DNA of 64,000 nucleotides from Eledone cirrhosa (lineage: Eukaryota), in assembly GCA_964016885.1 (NCBI GenBank), contig OZ024742.1, forward strand, positions 279,744,001-279,808,000, in the 5' to 3' direction. This document shows positions 6,464-62,002 of this stretch, piece after piece; the stretch's first letter is position 1; each line of letters opens with the position of its first letter. The translations under genes and the position numbers were made by a program. The notes under the pieces are model-generated. The model was not told the DNA's origin. It did not search any database and saw only the letters and a list, made by a program, of their open reading frames with translations.

Positions 6464-7267
6464 GGGGATATAGGGAAGGAGTGGGAGAAAGAAAGAGAAG
6501 AGAGAAAACCACAGACGAAATCCTAATAACCCATAGTCATTAGTGATGCATACTGTTAGTTGATATTTCATTTTAAAGAGTGAAATGTGTGCGGGAGGGG
6601 TCGAGGGTTCGTGTCTGACTGTTGTGCCACAACATGGTTGAGGTTGGCATATTGGTGGTAAACATGCATGACATCTGTTGTGACCAACAAAGCGTGGAAT
6701 TAGAACACGTGTACAGATGTAAATGTGTGAATAAAGGCTCGAAAAGCTACAACTAAACAACAACAATAAAAACAACAACAGTTAAAACAACAACAACAAC
6801 GACGATAGAAGCAATAACTATTACAAGAGCATTAAATTACAGTGTAAGATGTAAAAGAAAAAGAAAACAAAGAACATGGTGATATCAATGTTATTCTTGA
6901 TGATGATGATGATGGTGGTGATGATGATGGCGGTGGTGGTGCTGGTGGTGATGGTGCTGCTACTGCTGCTGTTGCTGCTGCAGCTGCTGCTGTTTGTGAT
7001 GCTTGTGCTGATGATGTTGATGATGATGATGCAGCAGTAGCTGCTATTGATGTTGATGCTGTAGAAGAAGAAGAAGAAGAAGAAGAAGAAGAAGAAGAAG
7101 AAGAAGAAGAAGAAGAAGAAGAAGAAGAAGAAAGTGGAGTAATGTGAGGTTCAGATCACACTGATATAGACTAAAGATAAAGAAAACCGTACTAAATTTC
7201 CCCACATATTAATAACAAACAGCTGATAAATGTCACCGTATACTACAGATACAACAACAACAACAAA

Positions 7268-31130: not shown

Positions 31131-32034
31131 AAGTGTTAAAACGATCAAATTTTTATTTAGAACATGTATTTTCTGACAATTGTTTCTTCCAATGGGAAGT
31201 CTGGAATTATCGGAGCATAGGGAATGTCGAAACATGTTACTAAAATCCTAGTCATTTAGAACATTTAGGGTACATAATTGTTATTAGTAGCATGTGAAGA
31301 GTTAGGAGTTAAAAAGATGTTCTGCTTGAAAGAACACAAATGCAGGCAGCACTGGTTGAAAGTGTAAGGCGTATAAGTGAAAAGCACAAGCAATAAAATA
31401 CAGCCAAAAATGATAATATAACAAATAATATTTTATATACTCTATAACCATTAATTTATAACACTACTACAATATTAAAACACCCCTTAATTTATCAACA
31501 ACCTTTATTTCCTCCCTTTGTTATTAATCCTCTTTACAATTTCCTGTATAAACTCATAAAATTAAGCAACCTAATGGTTTACCAACAGTTTAATAACGGT
31601 TAATACAAACCCTAGAAAAGGTAATTTGTAGATAAAAAATGCATAAGATAATATACCAACAATAACAACATGGCCAGTAATCCTATTGACTATAAATGAC
31701 TCAAAATAATGTCATGGTTAATAGCTGTGAGTTACAAACAACATATACACATACATACGAACTACAACACAAAAATGAAAATCACATATCCAACTCTATC
31801 ACGTGCTTTGCATTACACCTTACATAACAAATACCTACATTACCACCACATGCCTCTCTAACAAATTGCACACTATCTTAAACATTTATAACAATTATAA
31901 CATGCTTTAACACCCCACACAAAATATGTTTATTTCAACTGCAGTATAGCTCTTTCCTCATACATGCCTTATTGACTGTATTGACTCCTGCATTGTACAC
32001 CAATTTTCCTTGCTTATAACTTTTTTGCCTGTGT

Positions 32035-32490
32035 TTTTACAGCAGCAACGACAACAACTACGGCACCAATATCAATACAACTACAATAATACCAACAACA
32101 ACAACAGTAATAACAACAGAAACAACGTCAACAACAACAGTAACAACAACTACAACAACATCAACAACAACAATAACAGCAACAACAAAAGCAACCAACA
32201 ACAACTACAAGAACAGCAGCAGCAACAACAACTCTGACGTGACCAGCAATACAACCACAATAATACTATTAACAACAACAACAGCAATAACAACAATAAC
32301 AACTAAAACAACATCAACTACAACAGCAGCAACAATGAAAGCGACCAACAACAACAACAAGCAACAAGAATAGAAGTAGCAACGACAACAACTATGACGC
32401 TACCACCAACACAACCACAATAATACCACCACCAACCACAACAACACCAACACCAACACTATTGCCTTAATGCTACCGACAACAACTAGA
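32035..32490. repeat. (CAA)n-rich low-complexity repeat
   Basis: Read directly. Confidence 0.9.
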
Positions 32491-32495
32491 AAATG

Positions 32496-32678
32496 TAATA
32501 ATTGTTTCTACTTTTGGCACAAGGCCAGCAATTACCCTGTACATTACTGGTACTTTATTTTATCGACCCCGTAAGGATGAAAGGAAAAGTTATCCTCGGT
32601 GGGATTTGAACTCAGATCATAAAGAGACGTAACTCTATGCTCCAAATAATGTTGTCCGACTCTCTACCGATACTGCCA
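32496..32678 (-). mobile_element. tRNA-derived SINE
   Basis: Reverse-complement copy with B-box gagttcaaatcc. Confidence 0.9.
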
Positions 32679-32799
32679 GAGAAATCAAGATGGACGAGTT
32701 GATTCCTTGAAATGAACGTCTGTAACTATTGATGTATTTATTATAAATGAGTGGATACCAAACTGTTATGCCTAAATGTTGCAACGAGTTTGGCTTCAT

Positions 32800-34020
32800 A
32801 ATGTTCATGTTGTTGTTGGTGTTGTTGTAGTTATTGTTTTTGTTGTTGTTGATGATGTTATTGTTTGTGTTGTTGTATTTATTTTTATCATTGTTGTTTT
32901 TGTTATTGCTGTTGTTGTTTATGTTGTTGTTGTTGGTGGTGGGGGTGGTGATGGTGGTGGTGGTGTTGGTAGTTGGGATTGTTAGTGATGGTCGGGTTGA
33001 TGTTGATGGTTGAGTTGGTTGTGGTGGTGGTGGTGGTGGTGGTTGTTGTGGTGGTGGCGGTGATGGTGGAGGTGTTGGTAGTTGGGATTGTTAGTGATGG
33101 TCGGGCTGGTGGTGATGGTTGAGCTGGTTGTGGTAGTGGTGGTGGTGGTGGTGGTTATGGTGGTGGTGGTGGTGGTTGTGGTGGTGGCGGTGATGGTGGA
33201 GGTGTTAGTAGTTGGGATTGTTAGTGATGGTCGGGCTGGTGATGATGGTTGAGTTGGTGGTGGTTGTGGTGGTGGTGGTGGTGGTGGTGGTGGTGGTGGT
33301 GATGGTGGTGGTGGTGGTGGTGGTTGTGGTTGTCATGGTGGTGTTGATGGTAGTTGGGATTGGTAGTGATGGTCGGGTTGGTGTTGATGGTTGAGTTGGT
33401 TGTGGTGGTGGTGGTGGTGGTGGTGGTGATGGTTGAGTTGGTTGTGGTGGTGGCGGTGGTGGTTTTGGTAGTTGTGGTTGTCATGGTGGTGGTGACTGTC
33501 GTGGTGGTGGTCGTCGTCGTCGTGGTCGTGGTAATGGTGGCGGTGGTGGTGATGGTGGTAGTGGTGGTGGTGGTGGTTGTGGTGGTGCTGATGGCGGTGG
33601 TGCTGGTGGTGGTGGTGGTTGTGGTGGTGGTGGTGGTGGTGGTGATGGTGGTGGTGGTAGTGGTGATGATGGTGGTGGTGGCTGTGGTGGTGGTTTTGGT
33701 GGCGGTGGTGGTGGTGGTGGTGATGTTGGTGGTGGTGGTGGCGATTGTGGTGGTGGTGGTTGTGGTGGTGGTGGTAGTGGTGGTGGCGGTGGTGGTGGTG
33801 GTGGTGGTAGTGGCGGTAGTGGTGGTGGTGGTAGTGGTGGTGGTGGTGGTGGTGGTGGTGGTGGTGGTGGTAGTGGTGATATTCGTCCTCGTCGTCGTTT
33901 GTGTGGATGATCAGTTTTCTTGTTGGGTTGGGGAGCATGGTTCAGGTAGTATTGGTATGGTATTGATCGTAGTTGTGGTGCTGGTGGTAGTGGTTGTTGA
34001 TAATGTATTGGTGATGTGTT
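32800..34020. repeat. (GTT)n/(GGT)n low-complexity tract with four copies of an approximately 55-bp higher-order unit
   Basis: gtagttgggattg.tagtgatggtcggg..gatggttgag.tggt at about 32969, 33078, 33208 and 33350. Confidence 0.9.
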
Positions 34021-37844: not shown

Positions 37845-38493
37845 GACTATCAATGTACATTTCTGGTATTTATACATTTTGCCATGGTAAGGGAAGGGTA
37901 GTGAGTGGGAGTGGGGGTAGAAGTCATGGTGGGATTAAAGGATGGGGATTCTTAGAAAAAACTAAATTTATTTAGAGAAAGAAGTTTAGTGGTGAGTTGC
38001 AATTAAAATAAACACTACCATATTCTATAGTACAATTTTGAGCGAAAGGTATTTTAAGTAGTTGATCGAACATCTGTGGAAATGGTAGGTTAGTACAAGC
38101 ACACATGCCAACACACACGCGCCCACCCCCGCGCGCACACACACACATACACACATAAATACATATATACACATGCAAATACAAATATACAGACACACAT
38201 ACACACATGTGTATATATATACACGTACAAATATGCATATATACATATATATACGTATACATATATATATACATATATATATATATATACATACATATAC
38301 ATACATATGCATACATATATATATATATACGCACATATACATATATATATATATATACATATATACATACATATACACATACATATATGTGTGTGTGTGT
38401 GTGTGTGTATGTGTATATGTATGTATATATGTATATGTGTATATATGTATATGTGCGTATATATATATATATATATGTATGTATATGTCTGTA

Positions 38494-38532
<39 letters not shown>

Positions 38533-38538
<6 letters not shown>

Positions 38539-41533
38539 ATAAATGCTCTGAAATAGCGATATATATGTGAATATAGACATAGAATATTCGAAAATATTCT
38601 GTATGTTTATAATAAACATTTTGAAGACCTAATCGCTATAGAATAGAATACGTCACGTATTACAATTAGATTCTCGATAAAAGCAAGGGAAGTAAATCTA
38701 CGCGTTTCATTCTTATTAGAAATCGTCAGGACTACATATCCAGTGCTTTCATCGAGAATGACACAGCTAGAGACTTATAGAATACTTAGCTGTGTACAGG
38801 AACTGGTTTGAAAGAGCGGTTGCCGGTCCGGCAGAAATTAGAAATTGGAATAAATGCTCTGAAATAGCGATATATATGTGAATATAGACATAGAATATTC
38901 GAAAATATTCTGTATGTTTATAATAAACATTTTGAAGACCTAATCGCTATAGAATAGAATACGTCACGTATTACAATTAGATTCTCGATAAAAGCAAGGG
39001 AAGTAAATCTACGCGTTTCATTCTTATTAGAAATCGTCAGGACTACATATCCAGTGCTTTCATCGAGAATGACACAGCTAGAGACTTATAGAATACTTAG
39101 CTGTGTACAGGAACTGGTTTGAAAGAGCGGTTGCCGGTCCGGCAGAAATTAGAAATTGGAATAAATGCTCTGAAATAGCGATATATATGTGAATATAGAC
39201 ATAGAATATTCGAAAATATTCTGTATGTTTATAATAAACATTTTGAAGACCTAATCGCTATAGAATAGAATACGTCACGTATTACAATTAGATTCTCGAT
39301 AAAAGCAAGGGAAGTAAATCTACGCGTTTCATTCTTATTAGAAATCGTCAGGACTACATATCCAGTGCTTTCATCGAGAATGACACAGCTAGAGACTTAT
39401 AGAATACTTAGCTGTGTACAGGAACTGGTTTGAAAGAGCGGTTGCCGGTCCGGCAGAAATTAGAAATTGGAATAAATGCTCTGAAATAGCGATATATATG
39501 TGAATATAGACATAGAATATTCGAAAATATTCTGTATGTTTATAATAAACATTTTGAAGACCTAATCGCTATAGAATAGAATACGTCACGTATTACAATT
39601 AGATTCTCGATAAAAGCAAGGGAAGTAAATCTACGCGTTTCATTCTTATTAGAAATCGTCAGGACTACATATCCAGTGCTTTCATCGAGAATGACACAGC
39701 TAGAGACTTATAGAATACTTAGCTGTGTACAGGAACTGGTTTGAAAGAGCGGTTGCCGGTCCGGCAGAAATTAGAAATTGGAATAAATGCTCTGAAATAG
39801 CGATATATATGTGAATATAGACATAGAATATTCGAAAATATTCTGTATGTTTATAATAAACATTTTGAAGACCTAATCGCTATAGAATAGAATACGTCAC
39901 GTATTACAATTAGATTCTCGATAAAAGCAAGGGAAGTAAATCTACGCGTTTCATTCTTATTAGAAATCGTCAGGACTACATATCCAGTGCTTTCATCGAG
40001 AATGACACAGCTAGAGACTTATAGAATACTTAGCTGTGTACAGGAACTGGTTTGAAAGAGCGGTTGCCGGTCCGGCAGAAATTAGAAATTGGAATAAATG
40101 CTCTGAAATAGCGATATATATGTGAATATAGACATAGAATATTCGAAAATATTCTGTATGTTTATAATAAACATTTTGAAGACCTAATCGCTATAGAATA
40201 GAATACGTCACGTATTACAATTAGATTCTCGATAAAAGCAAGGGAAGTAAATCTACGCGTTTCATTCTTATTAGAAATCGTCAGGACTACATATCCAGTG
40301 CTTTCATCGAGAATGACACAGCTAGAGACTTATAGAATACTTAGCTGTGTACAGGAACTGGTTTGAAAGAGCGGTTGCCGGTCCGGCAGAAATTAGAAAT
40401 TGGAATAAATGCTCTGAAATAGCGATATATATGTGAATATAGACATAGAATATTCGAAAATATTCTGTATGTTTATAATAAACATTTTGAAGACCTAATC
40501 GCTATAGAATAGAATACGTCACGTATTACAATTAGATTCTCGATAAAAGCAAGGGAAGTAAATCTACGCGTTTCATTCTTATTAGAAATCGTCAGGACTA
40601 CATATCCAGTGCTTTCATCGAGAATGACACAGCTAGAGACTTATAGAATACTTAGCTGTGTACAGGAACTGGTTTGAAAGAGCGGTTGCCGGTCCGGCAG
40701 AAATTAGAAATTGGAATAAATGCTCTGAAATAGCGATATATATGTGAATATAGACATAGAATATTCGAAAATATTCTGTATGTTTATAATAAACATTTTG
40801 AAGACCTAATCGCTATAGAATAGAATACGTCACGTATTACAATTAGATTCTCGATAAAAGCAAGGGAAGTAAATCTACGCGTTTCATTCTTATTAGAAAT
40901 CGTCAGGACTACATATCCAGTGCTTTCATCGAGAATGACACAGCTAGAGACTTATAGAATACTTAGCTGTGTACAGGAACTGGTTTGAAAGAGCGGTTGC
41001 CGGTCCGGCAGAAATTAGAAATTGGAATAAATGCTCTGAAATAGCGATATATATGTGAATATAGACATAGAATATTCGAAAATATTCTGTATGTTTATAA
41101 TAAACATTTTGAAGACCTAATCGCTATAGAATAGAATACGTCACGTATTACAATTAGATTCTCGATAAAAGCAAGGGAAGTAAATCTACGCGTTTCATTC
41201 TTATTAGAAATCGTCAGGACTACATATCCAGTGCTTTCATCGAGAATGACACAGCTAGAGACTTATAGAATACTTAGCTGTGTACAGGAACTGGTTTGAA
41301 AGAGCGGTTGCCGGTCCGGCAGAAATTAGAAATTGGAATAAATGCTCTGAAATAGCGATATATATGTGAATATAGACATAGAATATTCGAAAATATTCTG
41401 TATGTTTATAATAAACATTTTGAAGACCTAATCGCTATAGAATAGAATACGTCACGTATTACAATTAGATTCTCGATAAAAGCAAGGGAAGTAAATCTAC
41501 GCGTTTCATTCTTATTAGAAATCGTCAGGACTA
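38533..41533 (-). mobile_element. Non-LTR retrozyme-like tandem array, left arm: about 9.6 x 311-bp monomers, 10 HHRs on the minus strand
   Basis: Period 311 (ttgg at 38534, 38845, 39156...); first HHR at 38692-38735. Confidence 0.9.
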
Positions 41534-44500
41534 AGTATTCTATAAGTATTCTATAAGTCTCTAGCTGTGTCATTCTCGATGAAAGCACTGGATATGTAGT
41601 CCTGACGATTTCTAATAAGAATGAAACGCGTAGATTTACTTCCCTTGCTTTTATCGAGAATCTAATTGTAATACGTGACGTATTCTATTCTATAGCGATT
41701 AGGTCTTCAAAATGTTTATTATAAACATACAGAATATTTTCGAATATTCTATGTCTATATTCACATATATATCGCTATTTCAGAGCATTTATTCCAATTT
41801 CTAATTTCTGCCGGACCGGCAACCGCTCTTTCAAACCAGTTCCTGTACACAGCTAAGTATTCTATAAGTCTCTAGCTGTGTCATTCTCGATGAAAGCACT
41901 GGATATGTAGTCCTGACGATTTCTAATAAGAATGAAACGCGTAGATTTACTTCCCTTGCTTTTATCGAGAATCTAATTGTAATACGTGACGTATTCTATT
42001 CTATAGCGATTAGGTCTTCAAAATGTTTATTATAAACATACAGAATATTTTCGAATATTCTATGTCTATATTCACATATATATCGCTATTTCAGAGCATT
42101 TATTCCAATTTCTAATTTCTGCCGGACCGGCAACCGCTCTTTCAAACCAGTTCCTGTACACAGCTAAGTATTCTATAAGTCTCTAGCTGTGTCATTCTCG
42201 ATGAAAGCACTGGATATGTAGTCCTGACGATTTCTAATAAGAATGAAACGCGTAGATTTACTTCCCTTGCTTTTATCGAGAATCTAATTGTAATACGTGA
42301 CGTATTCTATTCTATAGCGATTAGGTCTTCAAAATGTTTATTATAAACATACAGAATATTTTCGAATATTCTATGTCTATATTCACATATATATCGCTAT
42401 TTCAGAGCATTTATTCCAATTTCTAATTTCTGCCGGACCGGCAACCGCTCTTTCAAACCAGTTCCTGTACACAGCTAAGTATTCTATAAGTCTCTAGCTG
42501 TGTCATTCTCGATGAAAGCACTGGATATGTAGTCCTGACGATTTCTAATAAGAATGAAACGCGTAGATTTACTTCCCTTGCTTTTATCGAGAATCTAATT
42601 GTAATACGTGACGTATTCTATTCTATAGCGATTAGGTCTTCAAAATGTTTATTATAAACATACAGAATATTTTCGAATATTCTATGTCTATATTCACATA
42701 TATATCGCTATTTCAGAGCATTTATTCCAATTTCTAATTTCTGCCGGACCGGCAACCGCTCTTTCAAACCAGTTCCTGTACACAGCTAAGTATTCTATAA
42801 GTCTCTAGCTGTGTCATTCTCGATGAAAGCACTGGATATGTAGTCCTGACGATTTCTAATAAGAATGAAACGCGTAGATTTACTTCCCTTGCTTTTATCG
42901 AGAATCTAATTGTAATACGTGACGTATTCTATTCTATAGCGATTAGGTCTTCAAAATGTTTATTATAAACATACAGAATATTTTCGAATATTCTATGTCT
43001 ATATTCACATATATATCGCTATTTCAGAGCATTTATTCCAATTTCTAATTTCTGCCGGACCGGCAACCGCTCTTTCAAACCAGTTCCTGTACACAGCTAA
43101 GTATTCTATAAGTCTCTAGCTGTGTCATTCTCGATGAAAGCACTGGATATGTAGTCCTGACGATTTCTAATAAGAATGAAACGCGTAGATTTACTTCCCT
43201 TGCTTTTATCGAGAATCTAATTGTAATACGTGACGTATTCTATTCTATAGCGATTAGGTCTTCAAAATGTTTATTATAAACATACAGAATATTTTCGAAT
43301 ATTCTATGTCTATATTCACATATATATCGCTATTTCAGAGCATTTATTCCAATTTCTAATTTCTGCCGGACCGGCAACCGCTCTTTCAAACCAGTTCCTG
43401 TACACAGCTAAGTATTCTATAAGTCTCTAGCTGTGTCATTCTCGATGAAAGCACTGGATATGTAGTCCTGACGATTTCTAATAAGAATGAAACGCGTAGA
43501 TTTACTTCCCTTGCTTTTATCGAGAATCTAATTGTAATACGTGACGTATTCTATTCTATAGCGATTAGGTCTTCAAAATGTTTATTATAAACATACAGAA
43601 TATTTTCGAATATTCTATGTCTATATTCACATATATATCGCTATTTCAGAGCATTTATTCCAATTTCTAATTTCTGCCGGACCGGCAACCGCTCTTTCAA
43701 ACCAGTTCCTGTACACAGCTAAGTATTCTATAAGTCTCTAGCTGTGTCATTCTCGATGAAAGCACTGGATATGTAGTCCTGACGATTTCTAATAAGAATG
43801 AAACGCGTAGATTTACTTCCCTTGCTTTTATCGAGAATCTAATTGTAATACGTGACGTATTCTATTCTATAGCGATTAGGTCTTCAAAATGTTTATTATA
43901 AACATACAGAATATTTTCGAATATTCTATGTCTATATTCACATATATATCGCTATTTCAGAGCATTTATTCCAATTTCTAATTTCTGCCGGACCGGCAAC
44001 CGCTCTTTCAAACCAGTTCCTGTACACAGCTAAGTATTCTATAAGTCTCTAGCTGTGTCATTCTCGATGAAAGCACTGGATATGTAGTCCTGACGATTTC
44101 TAATAAGAATGAAACGCGTAGATTTACTTCCCTTGCTTTTATCGAGAATCTAATTGTAATACGTGACGTATTCTATTCTATAGCGATTAGGTCTTCAAAA
44201 TGTTTATTATAAACATACAGAATATTTTCGAATATTCTATGTCTATATTCACATATATATCGCTATTTCAGAGCATTTATTCCAATTTCTAATTTCTGCC
44301 GGACCGGCAACCGCTCTTTCAAACCAGTTCCTGTACACAGCTAAGTATTCTATAAGTCTCTAGCTGTGTCATTCTCGATGAAAGCACTGGATATGTAGTC
44401 CTGACGATTTCTAATAAGAATGAAACGCGTAGATTTACTTCCCTTGCTTTTATCGAGAATCTAATTGTAATACGTGACGTATTCTATTCTATAGCGATTA

Positions 44501-45794
44501 GGTCTTCAAAATGTTTATTATAAACATACAGAATATTTTCGAATATTCTATGTCTATATTCACATATATATCGCTATTTCAGAGCATTTATTCCAATTTC
44601 TAATTTCTGCCGGACCGGCAACCGCTCTTTCAAACCAGTTCCTGTACACAGCTAAGTATTCTATAAGTCTCTAGCTGTGTCATTCTCGATGAAAGCACTG
44701 GATATGTAGTCCTGACGATTTCTAATAAGAATGAAACGCGTAGATTTACTTCCCTTGCTTTTATCGAGAATCTAATTGTAATACGTGACGTATTCTATTC
44801 TATAGCGATTAGGTCTTCAAAATGTTTATTATAAACATACAGAATATTTTCGAATATTCTATGTCTATATTCACATATATATCGCTATTTCAGAGCATTT
44901 ATTCCAATTTCTAATTTCTGCCGGACCGGCAACCGCTCTTTCAAACCAGTTCCTGTACACAGCTAAGTATTCTATAAGTCTCTAGCTGTGTCATTCTCGA
45001 TGAAAGCACTGGATATGTAGTCCTGACGATTTCTAATAAGAATGAAACGCGTAGATTTACTTCCCTTGCTTTTATCGAGAATCTAATTGTAATACGTGAC
45101 GTATTCTATTCTATAGCGATTAGGTCTTCAAAATGTTTATTATAAACATACAGAATATTTTCGAATATTCTATGTCTATATTCACATATATATCGCTATT
45201 TCAGAGCATTTATTCCAATTTCTAATTTCTGCCGGACCGGCAACCGCTCTTTCAAACCAGTTCCTGTACACAGCTAAGTATTCTATAAGTCTCTAGCTGT
45301 GTCATTCTCGATGAAAGCACTGGATATGTAGTCCTGACGATTTCTAATAAGAATGAAACGCGTAGATTTACTTCCCTTGCTTTTATCGAGAATCTAATTG
45401 TAATACGTGACGTATTCTATTCTATAGCGATTAGGTCTTCAAAATGTTTATTATAAACATACAGAATATTTTCGAATATTCTATGTCTATATTCACATAT
45501 ATATCGCTATTTCAGAGCATTTATTCCAATTTCTAATTTCTGCCGGACCGGCAACCGCTCTTTCAAACCAGTTCCTGTACACAGCTAAGTATTCTATAAG
45601 TCTCTAGCTGTGTCATTCTCGATGAAAGCACTGGATATGTAGTCCTGACGATTTCTAATAAGAATGAAACGCGTAGATTTACTTCCCTTGCTTTTATCGA
45701 GAATCTAATTGTAATACGTGACGTATTCTATTCTATAGCGATTAGGTCTTCAAAATGTTTATTATAAACATACAGAATATTTTCGAATATTCTA

Positions 45795-45803
<9 letters not shown>
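41531..45803 (+). mobile_element. Non-LTR retrozyme-like tandem array, right arm: about 13.7 x 311-bp monomers, 14 HHRs on the plus strand
   Basis: Reverse complement of the left-arm monomer; HHRs at 41596 + 311k (k = 0-13); ends in (TA)n. Confidence 0.9.
41596..41639 (+). ncRNA. Minimal type I hammerhead ribozyme (representative of 24 copies); predicted cleavage after 41632
   Basis: gtagtc CTGACGA tttct aata agaat GAAA cgcg TA gatttac: intact core, palindromic CGCG stem III, stem I extended by attctcgatgaaagca/tgcttttatcgagaat. Confidence 0.88.
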
Positions 45804-45845
<42 letters not shown>

Positions 45846-47050
45846 GTATATGTATCTGTATATATATGTATATATGTGTATGTGTACGTGTATATATACA
45901 CATGTGTATGTGTGTCTGTATATTTGTATTTGTATGTGTATATATGTATTTATGTGTGTGTGTGCATGTATATATATCTATCTATATATATATATATGTA
46001 TTTATATACAGACACAGGCACAAACAGTGTAAAGTGAAAAAGGGAAGTTATGTAAAGTTCGGCAGAGTGATAGTGAGACAGTGATGGTGAGACAGAGTTA
46101 GAGTGAGACAGAGTGAGGGCGAGACAGTGGGAGATAAAGATATAAAATGTAACACACAGAATGATTAATAATTATAGGGAGAAAATACATGTTCTTAAGT
46201 TGTATAAATTGTTTTTGTTTGTATTGTTTTTACCACAGTTTTTGTTTTGTGTATTTTCATTTCTTTTCTGAAAGCGGAGCAATGGAGGAAGAAAAATAAA
46301 TTAACGCTTGTAGTGGGATCGACGAAAGAAAAAAAAAACATAGAAAAGATGATAGCAAGATGAAGACATGTACCAATAGATAGAAGATTGATGACGGAAT
46401 GACATCTTAGTACAAAAATGGACATTCATCATACAGGCTCAGCTGGGTGCATCTAGAAACCATTACAAAAGGTATAATAGTCAACATTTGAAAGCAAAAG
46501 AAAGAAAGAGAGAAGGATAGCGAGAGTGGTTAGGAGAAAGAAAAAAAATTGGCATGTAGATAGATATATATAGAGAGAGATTGTTAGAGAAAGGGGAGAG
46601 AGGGAGACAGCAAGGCGAAAACAAAATGGCGTATCTGCATATCTGCTTCACACATCATATTTTTGGCACGACTGCCAACTGCCACCTGTACAAATTATGT
46701 TTACGTCACGTTTTAACACACGTCTCACATATTAACCATCTGCAACTATGTATAGCTATGTATAACTATGTATATATGTGCGTATATATAACAGCTGAGT
46801 TGAACTTAAAACATAGAGAAGACACATGAGCGTCACCTCGACGCCACAAGGTCAAAATTAACAACAAAGTATATGTGTATGTCTATTTGTAGTGAGTATA
46901 TAGCTTTCTGTCTTTTGTGTCTATATGTCTGTGGCTCATATATAACTACACCCTCTCTCATCATTACACACATACATGTAATATAAACGGACATGAATAT
47001 ATATTTGTATATATATATATATATATATATGTGTTATATATATATGTATA

Positions 47051-57930: not shown

Positions 57931-58059
57931 ATAGATTAACGGAGCCATAGACTCTCGCTATTCCCTGTCAATAATGTGCTCAAAGGAGAAGGAATCCTGA
58001 GCTCTTTAAAATACAATATGTTGAAAAGATAACACACTATATATATATCTATATATATA

Positions 58060-58498
58060 TAATAAGGGTTGACGGACCCAGCATATGTATCAATGCCAGC
58101 ACCGGTTGTATCTCAGCGCACTCAATGGGCAATGTAAGATACATTACCAGAGTATACACATAGTTATTTGCCTCAACACAACACACGTAAAACGGGTGCC
58201 TATAAGGTTCCCGGACTCGATTTTCTGCAGCACTAATGCAGCAGTAAGGTGCACTGCACCATCTGTATGCATATAGTATGCAACAATGCACAATCGGCTT
58301 ATGCAGCTTCATCAGCGTGTACCGCCTAATCAATAACCAATCGATCGACATAATCCAAACACCGGCCCGTGCCGCTCATGACTGTTTCTGACAACCGACA
58401 GGGTAAAACGATTAACTGGCAACCGATAGGACTCTATCTCTCAACTAGACCTCATTTACAAATTTAACGTGGGGACGTAAGCTAAAAAGAATCAATCT
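58060..58498 (-). mobile_element. About 440-bp HHR-bearing element, copy 2 (HHR at 58210-58319)
   Basis: Colinear with 4622-5069; (TA)n on both sides. Confidence 0.75.
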
Positions 58499-58500
58499 AT

Positions 58501-58542
<42 letters not shown>

Positions 58543-58629
58543 GAAAAATTGAACAGGGACAGAACAGAGAGGCAGTACGATAAATGTTTATTAAATTCAC
58601 GCTCAGGAGAGTGGGGGGTAGGTGGAGGA

Positions 58630-58660
58630 CGACGTTTCGGGCATAAGCCCTTCTTCAGGT
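58630..58660 (-). ncRNA. Minimal hammerhead ribozyme in pLTR
   Basis: Minus strand: ac CTGAAGA a gggc ttat gccc GAAA cg TC gt. Confidence 0.7.
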
Positions 58661-59995
58661 GAGAGTTAAAAAGGTGTGTAGGGGAGTGGTGGAGAGACAT
58701 ATAGCGAAAGGAAACGGTGCGAATGAAAAATTAACAAATAAAGACAAAAATATAATAAATAATAAATAAAAATAAAGCATGATCAAAATACAAGGAATGA
58801 GAACATTAAAAAATAAAGGCATGATCAAAATAAACTGAAATTAAAAGGGGGGTAAACAGGTGGTGGAAGGGTGTGGGGTGAGTAGAGGTGGTGGAGGGTG
58901 GAGTGGGGAGAGGGAGACGGGGTGTCCGAGCGGGGAGGGCTGAAGGTGGTGTGTGTGGTTAGGTGTGCGTGTGTGTGTGTGTGTATGTGAAAGTGAGGGT
59001 TGGAGGAAGAACGGGGTTGCATGTTCAGGAAGGTGTGTGTGGGGGGTGTTTTTGTGTGTCGGAGGGTCTGTGCGTGTGTGGATAGGGGGGTTGGGGGAGA
59101 GGAATCAGGGGGCTGAGGGTGTAAATATGTGGTGGGAAGCACGTGTGTGTGGTTTAAGCGTGTTGTGGGTGTGGGTGGCGTGTGGATAAAAAAAAAATTG
59201 TTTTGGGATGTGTGTGTGGGTGAGTTATATAGGTGATGGTGTAAGAGGATGGTTGAAAGTGGTAAGTTACACGGATGTATGGAGATTTTGGTTGGAAGTC
59301 AAAACGCGTGTGGGTAATCCAAGAAGCGGTGGTCGGAAGAGGAGAGATGTGGGGTGCGCGCGCAACAGGAAGTGGTCAGCAGTGGAAGTGCTGTGGTCAG
59401 TTGGTGCTGAGACAGTGGTCGGAAGGGCATAGCAGCAGTCAGCGGAATGGTAGGGAGGCGAGGATGGGTAGGTGTGAGAGTTGGAGTGAGGAGGGTGTGT
59501 GTGTGTGTGTGTATTAGTAGGGGTGTTAGTGGGATGAGTGAGTGTGGAGTGGGGAGAGAAGGGGGTGTGTGGTTCTATGGAGGGAGTGTGGTGTACTGGT
59601 GTGTGTGTAGTTTGGTGAGGAGGTGTTAGTGGGTGTTAGTAGACGGGAGGTGGGGAGGGGTGGAATGCAGGTGTGAGTGGGGTTGGTGGGGGTAGGGTGT
59701 GTAGAGTTGGTGGTGTACGAGGGTGTGTGGGTACGTGTGCGTGGGGGTGGAGGGTGTTAGTGATGTTAGTTGCGTGTGGGGTGGGTGGTGTAAGTGTGTG
59801 CGTGTGGTAAGGAGGGGGGAGGAGGAGAAGAGGGGAGGGAAGGGATGTTAGTATGTTAGTTGGGGAAGGGTGGTCAGATGAGGGGTGGAGTGGAGTGGAG
59901 GTGTTAGTATTGTTAGTGTGGGGTGGGCGGTGAAAAGCAGGGGTGTGTTAGTGGTGTTAGTGGGGGATAAAAGGGGGAGGGGGGCGATTCGAACG

Positions 59996-61195
59996 CTAAA
60001 GGAATAAGGGTGGGGAGTTCAGGCCGGGGGGAGTGTGGGTCTGTAAGATGAAGATAGTACGTTGTTCGACCGTGAGGCGATGGGCGGGTGTTCCGTGGCA
60101 CTGGAGTAGGCCACAGACTGTGAGATGGCGTGCGGAGTGTCCAGGGCCACCAAAGTGGCGGGCGATGGGGGAACTGCCCCCGAGACGAATATCCCGGAGG
60201 TGCTCCGTGACTCGGTCCGCCAGGCGGCGTCTCGTCTGTCCGACATAAGTCGCGCTGCACCTCGTGCAACGAAGTCCGTAGACTAGGTTGGAGGAGGTGC
60301 AGCGGAAGGCATGCCGGACCGAGAGAGGGTGGCCGTTGGGACCCTGGAAGGTGGTAGTGTTGGTGATGTGGGGACAGGTGTTGCAGCGGGGCCTAGAACA
60401 GGGGAAGGAACCGGGGGGGGGGGGAAACGGACCGTGGGTTGGGGGGTAGGGAGCTGTGGACGAGGAGGGTGCGGAGATTGCGTGCGCGTTTGAAGGAGGG
60501 GAGTGGTGGGGTTGGGAAGATGTGGGAGGTGGAGGGGTCGGACTGGAGGTGTCGGAAGAGGCGGCGGATGGTGCGGTGGAGGGGTAAGGTGGAGGGGTGG
60601 TAGGTGATGGGGAAGGGGAGACGGTGGGTGGGTGTGCGGTGGCGTGGGGTGAGGGTGGTGGAGCGGGGGATAGCACGGGCGCGGGTGAGAGCGGTGTGGA
60701 CGAGAGAGGGGGGGTAACCTCTCCGGATGAAATGGCTGACTAGGGAAAGGGCCTGGGACTCGAAGTCAGCATCTCGGCTACAGAGGCGGCGGATCCTGAG
60801 AAGTTGGGAGTAGGGAATGGAGAGTTTAGTGTGGGTGGGGTGGGAAGAGGTGAAGTCGAGGTAAGAGTGGGAGTCGGTGGGTTTGAAGAAGGCGGAGGTG
60901 ACGAGGGAGTGGTGGGAGGGGTCGAAGGCGACGGAGATGTCCAAGAAGTGGACGTGGGTGGTGGAGATAGAGGTGGTGAAGTGGAGGGAGGGGTGGAAGG
61001 AGCAGAAGAAGGAGAGAAAGGAGTCGAGCTGTACTCGGGTGAGGGTCGTGGCTCCGATACAGTCGTCAATGTAACGACCGTACAGTTCGGGCGTGGGGCC
61101 GGTGTACTGGGCAAAGATTTGGGCTCAACATGGCCAACAAAAAGGTTGGCATAGTTCGGGCCCATTCTTGTGCCCATGGCTACCCCCGTGACCTG
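59996..61195 (-). pseudogene. PLE RT (C-terminal half) + GIY-YIG with two frameshifts (about 61125 and about 60420)
   Basis: GVAMGTRMGPNYANLF, RYIDD, FLDI, KPTDSHSYLDFTSSHP..SIPYSQLLRIRRLCS, CSRPRCNTC and NLVYGLRCTRCSATYVGQTRRRLADRVTEH. Confidence 0.92.
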
Positions 61196-62002
61196 TATAT
61201 ATATATATATATATACCTTTATATATTAACATACTTTTTCTCATAGCTTCGTACTTACAAACACACACACTCTTTTACTTACATATACACACACATATCC
61301 TCTTAGCTTCGTACAGACGTATAACAACACACACACGCGCGCGTGTTTATCACGCGCACAAGAATACCTCTTTACAGAAAAACGTTTTTGTTTTTACATT
61401 TCAGGTAGACGCACTCCATCACCCACTTTTCTAAAAAAAATATATCATACACAAATGGCCATCATCAACAGGTCTCCAAGAGATGGCAACATAAAATAAC
61501 CTATATATATTTCCAGGGCTGTATCACTTTGACGTTTTTCTGAAAAAGGGGAGGCAACACTAGAGAGGAAATATATTTTTCAAGTCAAATGCATTTCATT
61601 TTTTCCTCGATAAGCAATTGGGTACGAAGTAGAGTTTTCACTCGATATGCAGTCGATCTTTCTGGCTGACTGGCGGGTGTTGATGTTACAGCAGCTAGCC
61701 AATGTATTGTAAGCTCCTGGGTACGTGCAGGCAAATTCTGTGCAATGCAGGAAAGGATTCCATATTTCACATCTGGTCAACAACTACTTAGTGACGAACG
61801 AGAGAAACAAAGTAAAAAAGACACTCATGCACACACAAGTAGGGTGGGGAAATATGTGGTTAAAACACGCATACATGGGCACATGCATACACATCCCGAG
61901 CACTGAAGCTCGAGGAAGTAACAGAAAACAAAAATACATACACATACAAAAACAAACACAGGCACAGGTACATAACCCATGCACCTGTCAGAACAAGAGA
62001 AG

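Follow-up and report, generated by a model that had tools for sequence, protein, structure and literature searches.

Head-to-head arrays of a 311-bp hammerhead-bearing repeat in TA microsatellites of Eledone cirrhosa, a probable footprint of insertion by Penelope-like elements

The stretch of DNA analyzed here, referred to below as the window, comprises 64,000 nucleotides of Eledone cirrhosa (assembly GCA_964016885.1, contig OZ024742.1, positions 279,744,001 to 279,808,000 of the forward strand), and the element under study consists of two opposed arrays of one 311-bp unit, placed head-to-head inside a TA microsatellite and covering in total 7,271 nt (38533-45803). We interpret the seam between both arrays as the inner join of a single insertion, in which the reverse transcriptase (RT)-endonuclease of a Penelope-like element (PLE) quite probably cleaved the (TA)n tract on both strands and used one RNA as the template to lengthen each 3' end. 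The geometry of the arrays, the rule followed by their outer ends, the template shared by both arms and the microhomology at the seam are direct observations, and the head-to-head arms are no one-off but the standard footprint of this 311-bp family at approximately 1,000 genomic sites.

Phases within the unit are numbered from window position 41543 (phase 1). The left arm (38533-41533) has its hammerhead-sense strand (see below) on the minus strand and contains 9.65 copies, with an outer end at phase 256, of a tail-bearing type designated B, and an inner end at phase 55. The right arm (41543-45803) has its hammerhead-sense strand on the plus strand, contains 13.70 copies and ends outward at phase 218, the type designated A. 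Tandem Repeats Finder (TRF) reports a 311-bp array of 9.6 copies with 100% matches at 38533-41533, a second 311-bp array of 13.7 copies at 41543-45815, and an 11-bp repeat, present 2.5 times, at 41532-41558. The arms are perfect inverted repeats, as for example 38528-41538 against 41592-44602, which are 100% complementary over 3011 nt, and differences from the 311-bp unit amount to zero both in the 3,001 nt of the left arm and in the 4,261 nt of the right one. GC content across the array region (38-46 kb) is 0.32-0.34.

The junction sequence (window 41520-41559) reads ...aatcgtcaggaCTAagtattctaTAAGTATTCTAtaagtc. A 3-nt overlap, CTA (41531-41533), is common to the end of the minus arm, which extends to 41533 (phase 55), and to sense phases 311, 1 and 2, and is followed by an 11-nt direct duplication on the plus strand (41532-41553), with phases 1-11 occurring twice (41532-41542 and 41543-41553) at the inner end of the right arm. 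Because TAAGT is present at unit phases 1 and 12, the sequence would allow an easy slip back by 11 nt. A 30-mer spanning the duplication occurs at 33 genomic places, approximately 30 of which belong to one cluster on contig C14; outside the cluster it is found three times, in the window, in L068 and in L070, each time at a distance of 0-25 nt from a head-to-head seam. The arm whose inner end bears the duplication is the A-ended one in the window and in L070, and in L068 the outer end of that arm lies beyond the fetched stretch. The C14 cluster itself (approximately 25.02-25.33 Mb, L071-L079) holds its duplication-bearing unit copies directly behind a TA tract, at a spacing of a few kb and within rearranged repeat fragments, which looks like higher-order or segmental amplification.

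Both outer ends of the insertion border on microsatellite DNA. On the left (38143-38532) this is a compound CA/TA/TG microsatellite whose last ~150 nt are TG-interrupted (TA)n, and on the right (45804-46008) it is (TA)n followed by a TG-interrupted microsatellite, both delimited from TRF, the sequence and TG/CA counts. In sense orientation, the left end at 38533 (phase 256) reads ...ttccaat|atat and the right end at 45803 (phase 218) reads ...gtctatat|atat, the two being 38 nt apart in phase. Repeat search and alignment identify a segment at 38144-38308 (Segment S) as an older inverted copy of 45804-45964, identical at 147 of 161 aligned positions; the left copy of this inverted repeat is removed from the left arm by 225 nt, and its right copy touches the right arm without a gap. 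Because Segment S inversely copies the right flank, the flanks show the target of the insertion to be the spacer of a palindromic compound CA/TA/TG microsatellite. No target-site duplication is discernible in the TA repeats, and the direct alignment of the window flanks is weak. Flank inverted repeats were considered as a component of the mechanism and rejected, as they occur only in the window, where they are old (91%), and at L034, where they are two unrelated SINE-like copies (SINE, short interspersed element). The latter are tRNA-like SINE copies in opposite orientation on either side of the insertion (L034:2607-2766 and 6976-7135), and the left one is followed by (CT)n and then by the (TA)n tract which received the insertion.

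The genome surveyed amounts to 3.0 Gb in 1,796 contigs and contains the 311-bp unit at many loci with 100% identity. A first set of 17 stretches, corresponding to 16 further loci, was mapped by script for orientation and phase. The order is minus-then-plus, with the hammerhead-sense strand pointing outward, in all 16 readable loci (the window and 15 others; a 17th locus, L037, is interrupted by a run of N and hence unreadable), with no tail-to-tail and no single-orientation array among them, and every locus has its own seam phases and copy numbers, the latter ranging from 0.2 to 18 units per arm. Over the whole genome, the pattern composed of a B end plus TA yields 1,046 matches against 0 for its reversed control, and that of an A end plus TA yields 1,240 against 16. 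On the first 256 Mb of contig C1, 95 B ends were listed, 41 of them with a 221-type A end on the head-to-head side at a distance of at most 25 kb (median span 2.4 kb) and one with an A end on the wrong side, attributable to a neighbouring insertion; that 51 of the 95 have no listed partner is expected, since the search covered 221-type A ends alone. No B/B pair within 20 kb is found among these 95 listed B ends; two of them lie at a distance of 21 kb, both lacking a listed A partner. When 40 of the contig C1 pairs were fetched, 35 displayed a single switch of orientation, 4 had an extra neighbouring block in the flank and 1 had a complex seam.

Concerning the outer ends, 14 of the 15 loci with both ends readable combine one B end (phase 256-258) with one A end (phase 212-234), and at the 15th, L039, the left end is rearranged. 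The B end reads ...CCAAT|ATAT, and the A end ...CTATATTCA|TATATA or ...CACATATATAT|ATAT; the offset between A and B is 22-38 nt, and it is the B end that carries this extra stretch (the 'tail'). At most 1-2 nt of the B end could possibly stem from the TA tract, and the A end falls within the TA-rich part of the unit, with 5-9 ambiguous bases at most. Were each end to choose on its own, with both sites equally used, the chance of finding all 14 of 14 pairs discordant would be ~6e-5. TA-rich microsatellite is found at all the outer ends displayed, except for the complex left end of L039 and for the ends lost to runs of N or to the edge of a stretch.

A first-pass annotation of the window, made from its letters alone, had described a strand flip that makes the array a 7.3-kb head-to-head palindrome, with a 3-nt microhomology followed by an 11-nt duplication at the junction and with outer ends at different phases, both abutting (TA)n. 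TRF, the inverted-repeat match and phase mapping agree with the palindrome, the sequence, TRF and phase mapping with both features of the junction, and phases 256 and 218 with the unequal ends, while the survey of other family loci for inversions and (TA)n termini which it had proposed found the same architecture at every readable locus. Its further claim, that AT microhomology is present at the outer ends, holds at best for the A end and fails for the B end at phase 256, whose homology to (TA)n does not exceed 1-2 nt.

The two arms of a locus share more than their unit type. One unit from one arm was aligned to the opposite arm at 46 loci, 43 of which aligned in full, and the arms proved identical in 39 of these 43, with 6 differences in 13,373 nt overall. 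Units from different loci have a median of 3 differences, and identity is seen in only 130 of 1,119 pairs. Since arms are identical within loci yet loci differ from each other, both arms of a locus would derive from one event and one template variant, and not from two independent hits on a TA tract.

Seams were analyzed in two sets. In the 14 filler-free seams of the first set, the overlap is 0-4 nt, with a mean of 1.79 against the 0.75 expected for blunt joins at random phase (P=0.002). In 30 of the 37 usable seams of the second set, it is 0-9 nt, with a mean of 3.0 against 0.75, a value that 0 of 200,000 simulations reach; the remaining 7 seams contain 1-13 nt of filler. Three loci (L087, L096 and L110) were left out of these statistics, since the internal complementarity of the unit confounded phase mapping. 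The 16 and 37 junction phases are all different, and inner ends are evenly spread over the unit (106 ends, chi2 9.1, df 10); a hot spot near the hammerhead core (phases 51-65), hinted at by the first 16 loci, was not significant with 106 ends and was discarded. Seams at nearly the same phase are found in 9 of 53 cases against 3.9 expected (P=0.015) and are located at the local palindromes of the unit, as would follow from the 3' end of one copy having to find complementary bases on a second copy of like polarity.

These features can be compared with what is known of PLE insertions. PLE insertions form partial tandems, often with an inverted 5'-truncated copy at the 5' end, and carry a tail of 30-40 bp at one end only, and some PLE clades favour (TA)n targets (PMC8557442). 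A purified PLE protein cleaves and extends both strands, favouring AT-rich DNA; reverse transcription begins at two adjacent internal sites of the RNA, without homology to the target, the tail being the stretch between them, and start sites are alike on both strands in vitro (PMC11167929). The 311-bp family is similar in its tandem plus inverted, 5'-truncated head-to-head copy (in 16 of 16 readable loci, the window included), in its 22-38-nt extra stretch at one end only with two fixed end sites (14 of 15 loci), and in its (TA)n target, of which both strands are used. It differs in that both arms are many-unit arrays, of up to 19 copies, instead of an element and a stump, and in that the strict combination of one A with one B exceeds both the 'often only at one end' of PLEs and the equality of strands in vitro.

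In the proposed mechanism, the PLE enzyme would cut both strands of the TA tract, whereupon one 3' end would prime at site B (phase 256, with no homology to the target) and the other at site A (phase 212-234, TA-rich), A and B corresponding to the neighbouring pair of internal RT start sites and what lies between A and B to the PLE 'tail'. Each polymerase would cover the length of several or even many units, with a circular monomer or a multimer as template, the two like-stranded cDNAs would join where one 3' end meets a few complementary bases, sometimes with a short slip or filler, and the palindrome would be completed by synthesis of the second strand. For the window, this means that the product forming the right arm would have reached phase 1, slipped back by 11 nt, gone on as far as phase 311 and annealed to the left-arm product through CTA. 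Arms pointing outward in 16 of 16 loci would be expected if both DNA ends copied one single-stranded template.

The process resembles the twin priming of L1, in which two cDNAs start from both target strands on one RNA and their 5'-ward ends are joined head-to-head with microhomology. L1, however, initiates on the poly(A) tail and at some random internal position, covers its RNA once and gives inversion as a minority outcome, whereas the 311-bp family has fixed internal starts, multi-unit arrays and inversion as the rule. A twin-priming-like origin with joining by microhomology had been suggested in the first-pass annotation: the likeness stands as far as same-polarity arms from both sides of the TA tract are concerned, and the excess of overlap in both seam sets supports the mode of joining, but the two primings appear to be coupled and not independent as supposed, because A and B are paired in 14 of 15 loci, no near B/B pair is found and arms are identical in 39 of 43. 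The spontaneously broken (TA)n tract that it had invoked gives way to a cut by the PLE endonuclease, which explains the break better (PMC11167929, PMC8557442). It may further be that each integration uses both RT start sites once, one per DNA strand, on a single RNA template, in a concerted asymmetric two-strand reaction, a tentative proposal in which our confidence is somewhat less than even.

The strand that points outward is defined by a candidate type-I hammerhead, one copy of which lies at 41591-41647 on the plus strand (phases 49-105), as delimited by a weak alignment to Rfam HH9 and by the covariation of nine motifs. It is composed of CUGACGA (41602-41608), GAAAC (41623-41627) and a helix III palindrome ACGCGU, with a predicted cut after 41632 (phase 90), and its parts follow in the order helix I 5' strand, CUGACGA, U, 4-bp helix II, U, GAAA, ACGCGU, A, cut, helix I 3' strand. 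At gathering score, Rfam finds a hammerhead neither in the window nor in 10 PLE or relative loci, and in 41000-42200 it finds none even at E<=10; a 91-nt search aligns Hammerhead_HH9 in the expected structure at 10.4 bits (E=5; gathering score 52). In nine related motifs from diverged families in the fetched DNA, 84.8% of cells pair, as against 36-46% with slid partners, and 8 of 15 pairs change on both sides, which 0 of 500 shuffles reach, it being understood that related sequences can beat shuffles and that the structure was hand-drawn from these same sequences. As Rfam does not recognise the motif, its support comes from the covariation of its relatives, and we rate it as a genuine but non-canonical hammerhead homologue with predicted ribozyme activity. 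Contig data suggest a U at core position 7 in most genomic copies. According to PMC4209133, hammerheads of metazoans and of PLEs that function as dimers are characterised by a short palindromic helix III.

The unit RNA as a whole folds better than shuffled sequences (z = -4.06). Unit phases 28-46 and 103-120 (for example 41570-41588 and 41645-41662) are complementary and pair into a long stem in the predicted fold of the unit RNA; in the genomic variant that is commonest, with A at phase 39, the match is so nearly perfect that it confuses k-mer strand calls. Older related hammerhead elements share TA tracts with young insertions at L045:3208-3275, L046:3571-3638 and L067:7980-8110; they display CUGAUGA, a covarying helix I of 6-8 bp and a helix III of the form ACAG...CUGU, and the L067 element is a mini palindrome with arms of ~75 nt and a 9-nt spacer.

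PLEs themselves are abundant in this genome. A search for GIY-YIG yields at least 10,595 candidate sites, all 150 of the 150 scored exceeding the cut-off, and PLE open reading frames (ORFs) of up to 938 aa contain RVT_1 followed by a C-terminal GIY-YIG domain. At five loci (L049, L050, L051, L053 and L055), a hammerhead of one abundant PLE family is found ~450-700 nt after the endonuclease domain, built in the same unusual way as that of the 311-bp repeat, with a U..U-flanked 4-bp helix II, a 2-bp helix III bearing a palindromic loop of 2 nt, and an A where the cut would fall. All five of these PLE copies end in (TA)n, four of them as ...TTCA|(TA)n, resembling the A end of the repeat. The PLE hammerhead core at these loci is UUGAUAA, with U3/A8, which would keep the C3-G8 pair as U-A. 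At L049:2420-2880, directly behind the 3' end of a PLE copy, lies a diverged relative of the unit (~65-75% identity), likewise inserted head-to-head, its B-like and A-like ends lying in a TA/CA tract.

Regarding coding capacity, the unit has no long ORF, none of at least 150 aa being present between 38635 and 53308, and a Pfam scan of 12 of the 41 window ORFs of at least 150 aa gave a below-threshold Mucin match alone, hence no PLE gene among these. An autonomous PLE encodes RT and GIY-YIG, which the unit does not, and RT-GIY-YIG ORFs are located elsewhere in the genome. For this reason the 311-bp repeat would be at most a non-autonomous passenger, for which RT and endonuclease would have to be borrowed. 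Elsewhere in the window the composition is unusual, with a GC content of 0.21 at 1-2000 and a strong GC skew of 0.49 at 32001-34000 and of 0.31-0.56 at 58001-62000, where GC reaches up to 0.53.

Elements of comparable build are the metazoan non-long-terminal-repeat (non-LTR) retrozymes, which are AT-rich, non-coding tandem units of a few hundred bp with a type-I hammerhead each (PMC7229834, bioRxiv 10.64898/2026.07.22.740005); the short palindromic helix III of these hammerheads points to a dimeric mode of action, and dependence of the units on PLEs is proposed. Being of low GC, non-coding and tandem, the 311-bp unit fits the size and composition of this group (~170-400 bp), it shares the unit type with it and bears a candidate hammerhead with a short palindromic helix III; it differs in that circular RNA and self-cleavage were demonstrated there, while the 311-bp family is known from DNA. 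For head-to-head arms in retrozymes we found no published description, including the available portions of these two sources, and that of PMC8969392 mentions inverted pLTRs of PLEs only. The 311-bp family is a retrozyme-like, probably PLE-dependent repeat with a PLE insertion footprint, of a kind already known.

Several points weigh against this interpretation. A blastn search of the unit against 20 PLE loci finds no similar autonomous PLE; its sole matches are separate, diverged repeat copies at L049, L059 and L067, and what ties the family to PLEs is its architecture together with the target that they share. The strict use of one site of each kind is unexplained by published PLE work, and the set of 40 loci, picked by end signatures, provides no test of this rule, which is carried by the set of 15 loci and the pairing on contig C1. 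The hammerhead escapes Rfam, and its subfamily has U.U in place of the usual G10.1-C11.1 pair. Gene conversion within the palindrome could in principle yield identical arms, and the template could be single-stranded DNA rather than RNA.

Among the alternatives, host repair of a spontaneous (TA)n break fares best, though we consider it unlikely. Here, both resected 3' ends would anneal through TA microhomology to single-stranded repeat (RNA or circular single-stranded DNA) and be extended by a host polymerase, with no PLE enzyme involved. The TA-rich A end, which merges into (TA)n with up to 5-9 ambiguous bases, the microhomology used at the seams, and a target in the window that, as the spacer of a palindromic microsatellite, is likely a fragile site, would all agree with such a process. 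Two free ends in search of TA homology should, however, both choose site A, whereas the B end, exact in position (phase 256-259) and with no more than 1-2 nt of TA homology, is nonetheless used once per insertion in 14 of 15 loci. Moreover, the 22-38-nt offset between the two sites matches the PLE tail (PMC8557442, PMC11167929), and PLE copies in this genome end in (TA)n, four of the five with the same TTCA|(TA)n junction.

Still less probable is an artefact of assembly or library preparation, i.e. a fold-back chimeric read or a wrong join that made the window seam. Perfectly identical repeats are hard to assemble, and no contig of sequencing runs X1-X3 or X6 bridges 41533|41534 (region 41492-41584); contigs that stop at 41533 continue as canonical unit. 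Holes in such cover are uninformative, however, as X1 also lacks cover at 41536-41539 despite ~30 genomic copies. A fold-back would give a symmetric seam and mirrored flanks, whereas the window joins phase 55 to phase 311, ends at 256 versus 218 and has unequal arms, together with all the features typical of the family (A and B ends, overlap, and a slip next to the junction). Three runs of one sample, which carry the same species label, have the unit at very high word depth, and their contigs contain at least 14 head-to-head joins at other phases, besides 8 further joints of unspecified kind; after conversion by hand into unit phases, none of these 14 matches a join among 53 loci, little chance overlap being expected given ~1,000 loci. 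Record 11 of X2 (depth 165) and record 18 of X3 (depth 132) contain the 11-nt duplication behind a TA-rich stretch and fit the C14 cluster. In run X4, which bears another species label, the unit is ~99% identical and one contig ends at phase 256 into (AT)n and unique sequence.

Foldback (FB-type) transposons have long inverted arms of tandem repeats with unequal arm lengths. A foldback-type DNA transposon would move by a transposase through tandem-built long terminal inverted repeats and vary in its centre through palindrome deletions, and inverted arms of tandem units, unequal arm lengths and an AT-rich target recall this class. It is nevertheless hardly credible here, since the termini are asymmetric, the outer ends differing in phase (A versus B) in 14 of 15 loci where terminal inverted repeats would be alike; each locus has a centre, i.e. 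a seam, and copy numbers of its own; the unit has no ORF of at least 150 aa and no link to a transposase was found; and polarity follows the hammerhead strand, with ends that match the behaviour of PLE start sites. Equally remote are two separate, opposite insertions into a single TA tract, or the later inversion of a direct array through template switching during replication, for although TA tracts are hit repeatedly, with neighbouring insertions or older hammerhead elements at L045, L046, L091 and L102, no TA is found between the arms, the order is never tail-to-tail, end types are coupled, and both arms carry the same variant at 39 of 43 loci as against identity in 130 of 1,119 random locus pairs.

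The family offers hundreds of very young, exactly readable insertions, in which arms, start sites, template and seam can all be counted, and it is the one-of-each end rule together with the identical arms that argues for a concerted reaction. If this holds true, the ~1,000 palindromic arrays would be a natural record of concerted PLE integration, for example by a dimeric enzyme holding one RNA, and not of first-strand synthesis followed by host repair. Each insertion would then start out as an inverted repeat of several kb from which hairpin RNA directed at its own family could arise, although double-stranded RNA from read-through transcription of the palindrome, as raised in the first-pass annotation, is speculation. 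For genome annotation, the family indicates that a perfect multi-kb palindrome in a TA microsatellite can be real, the product of one insertion, and is not necessarily an assembly error.

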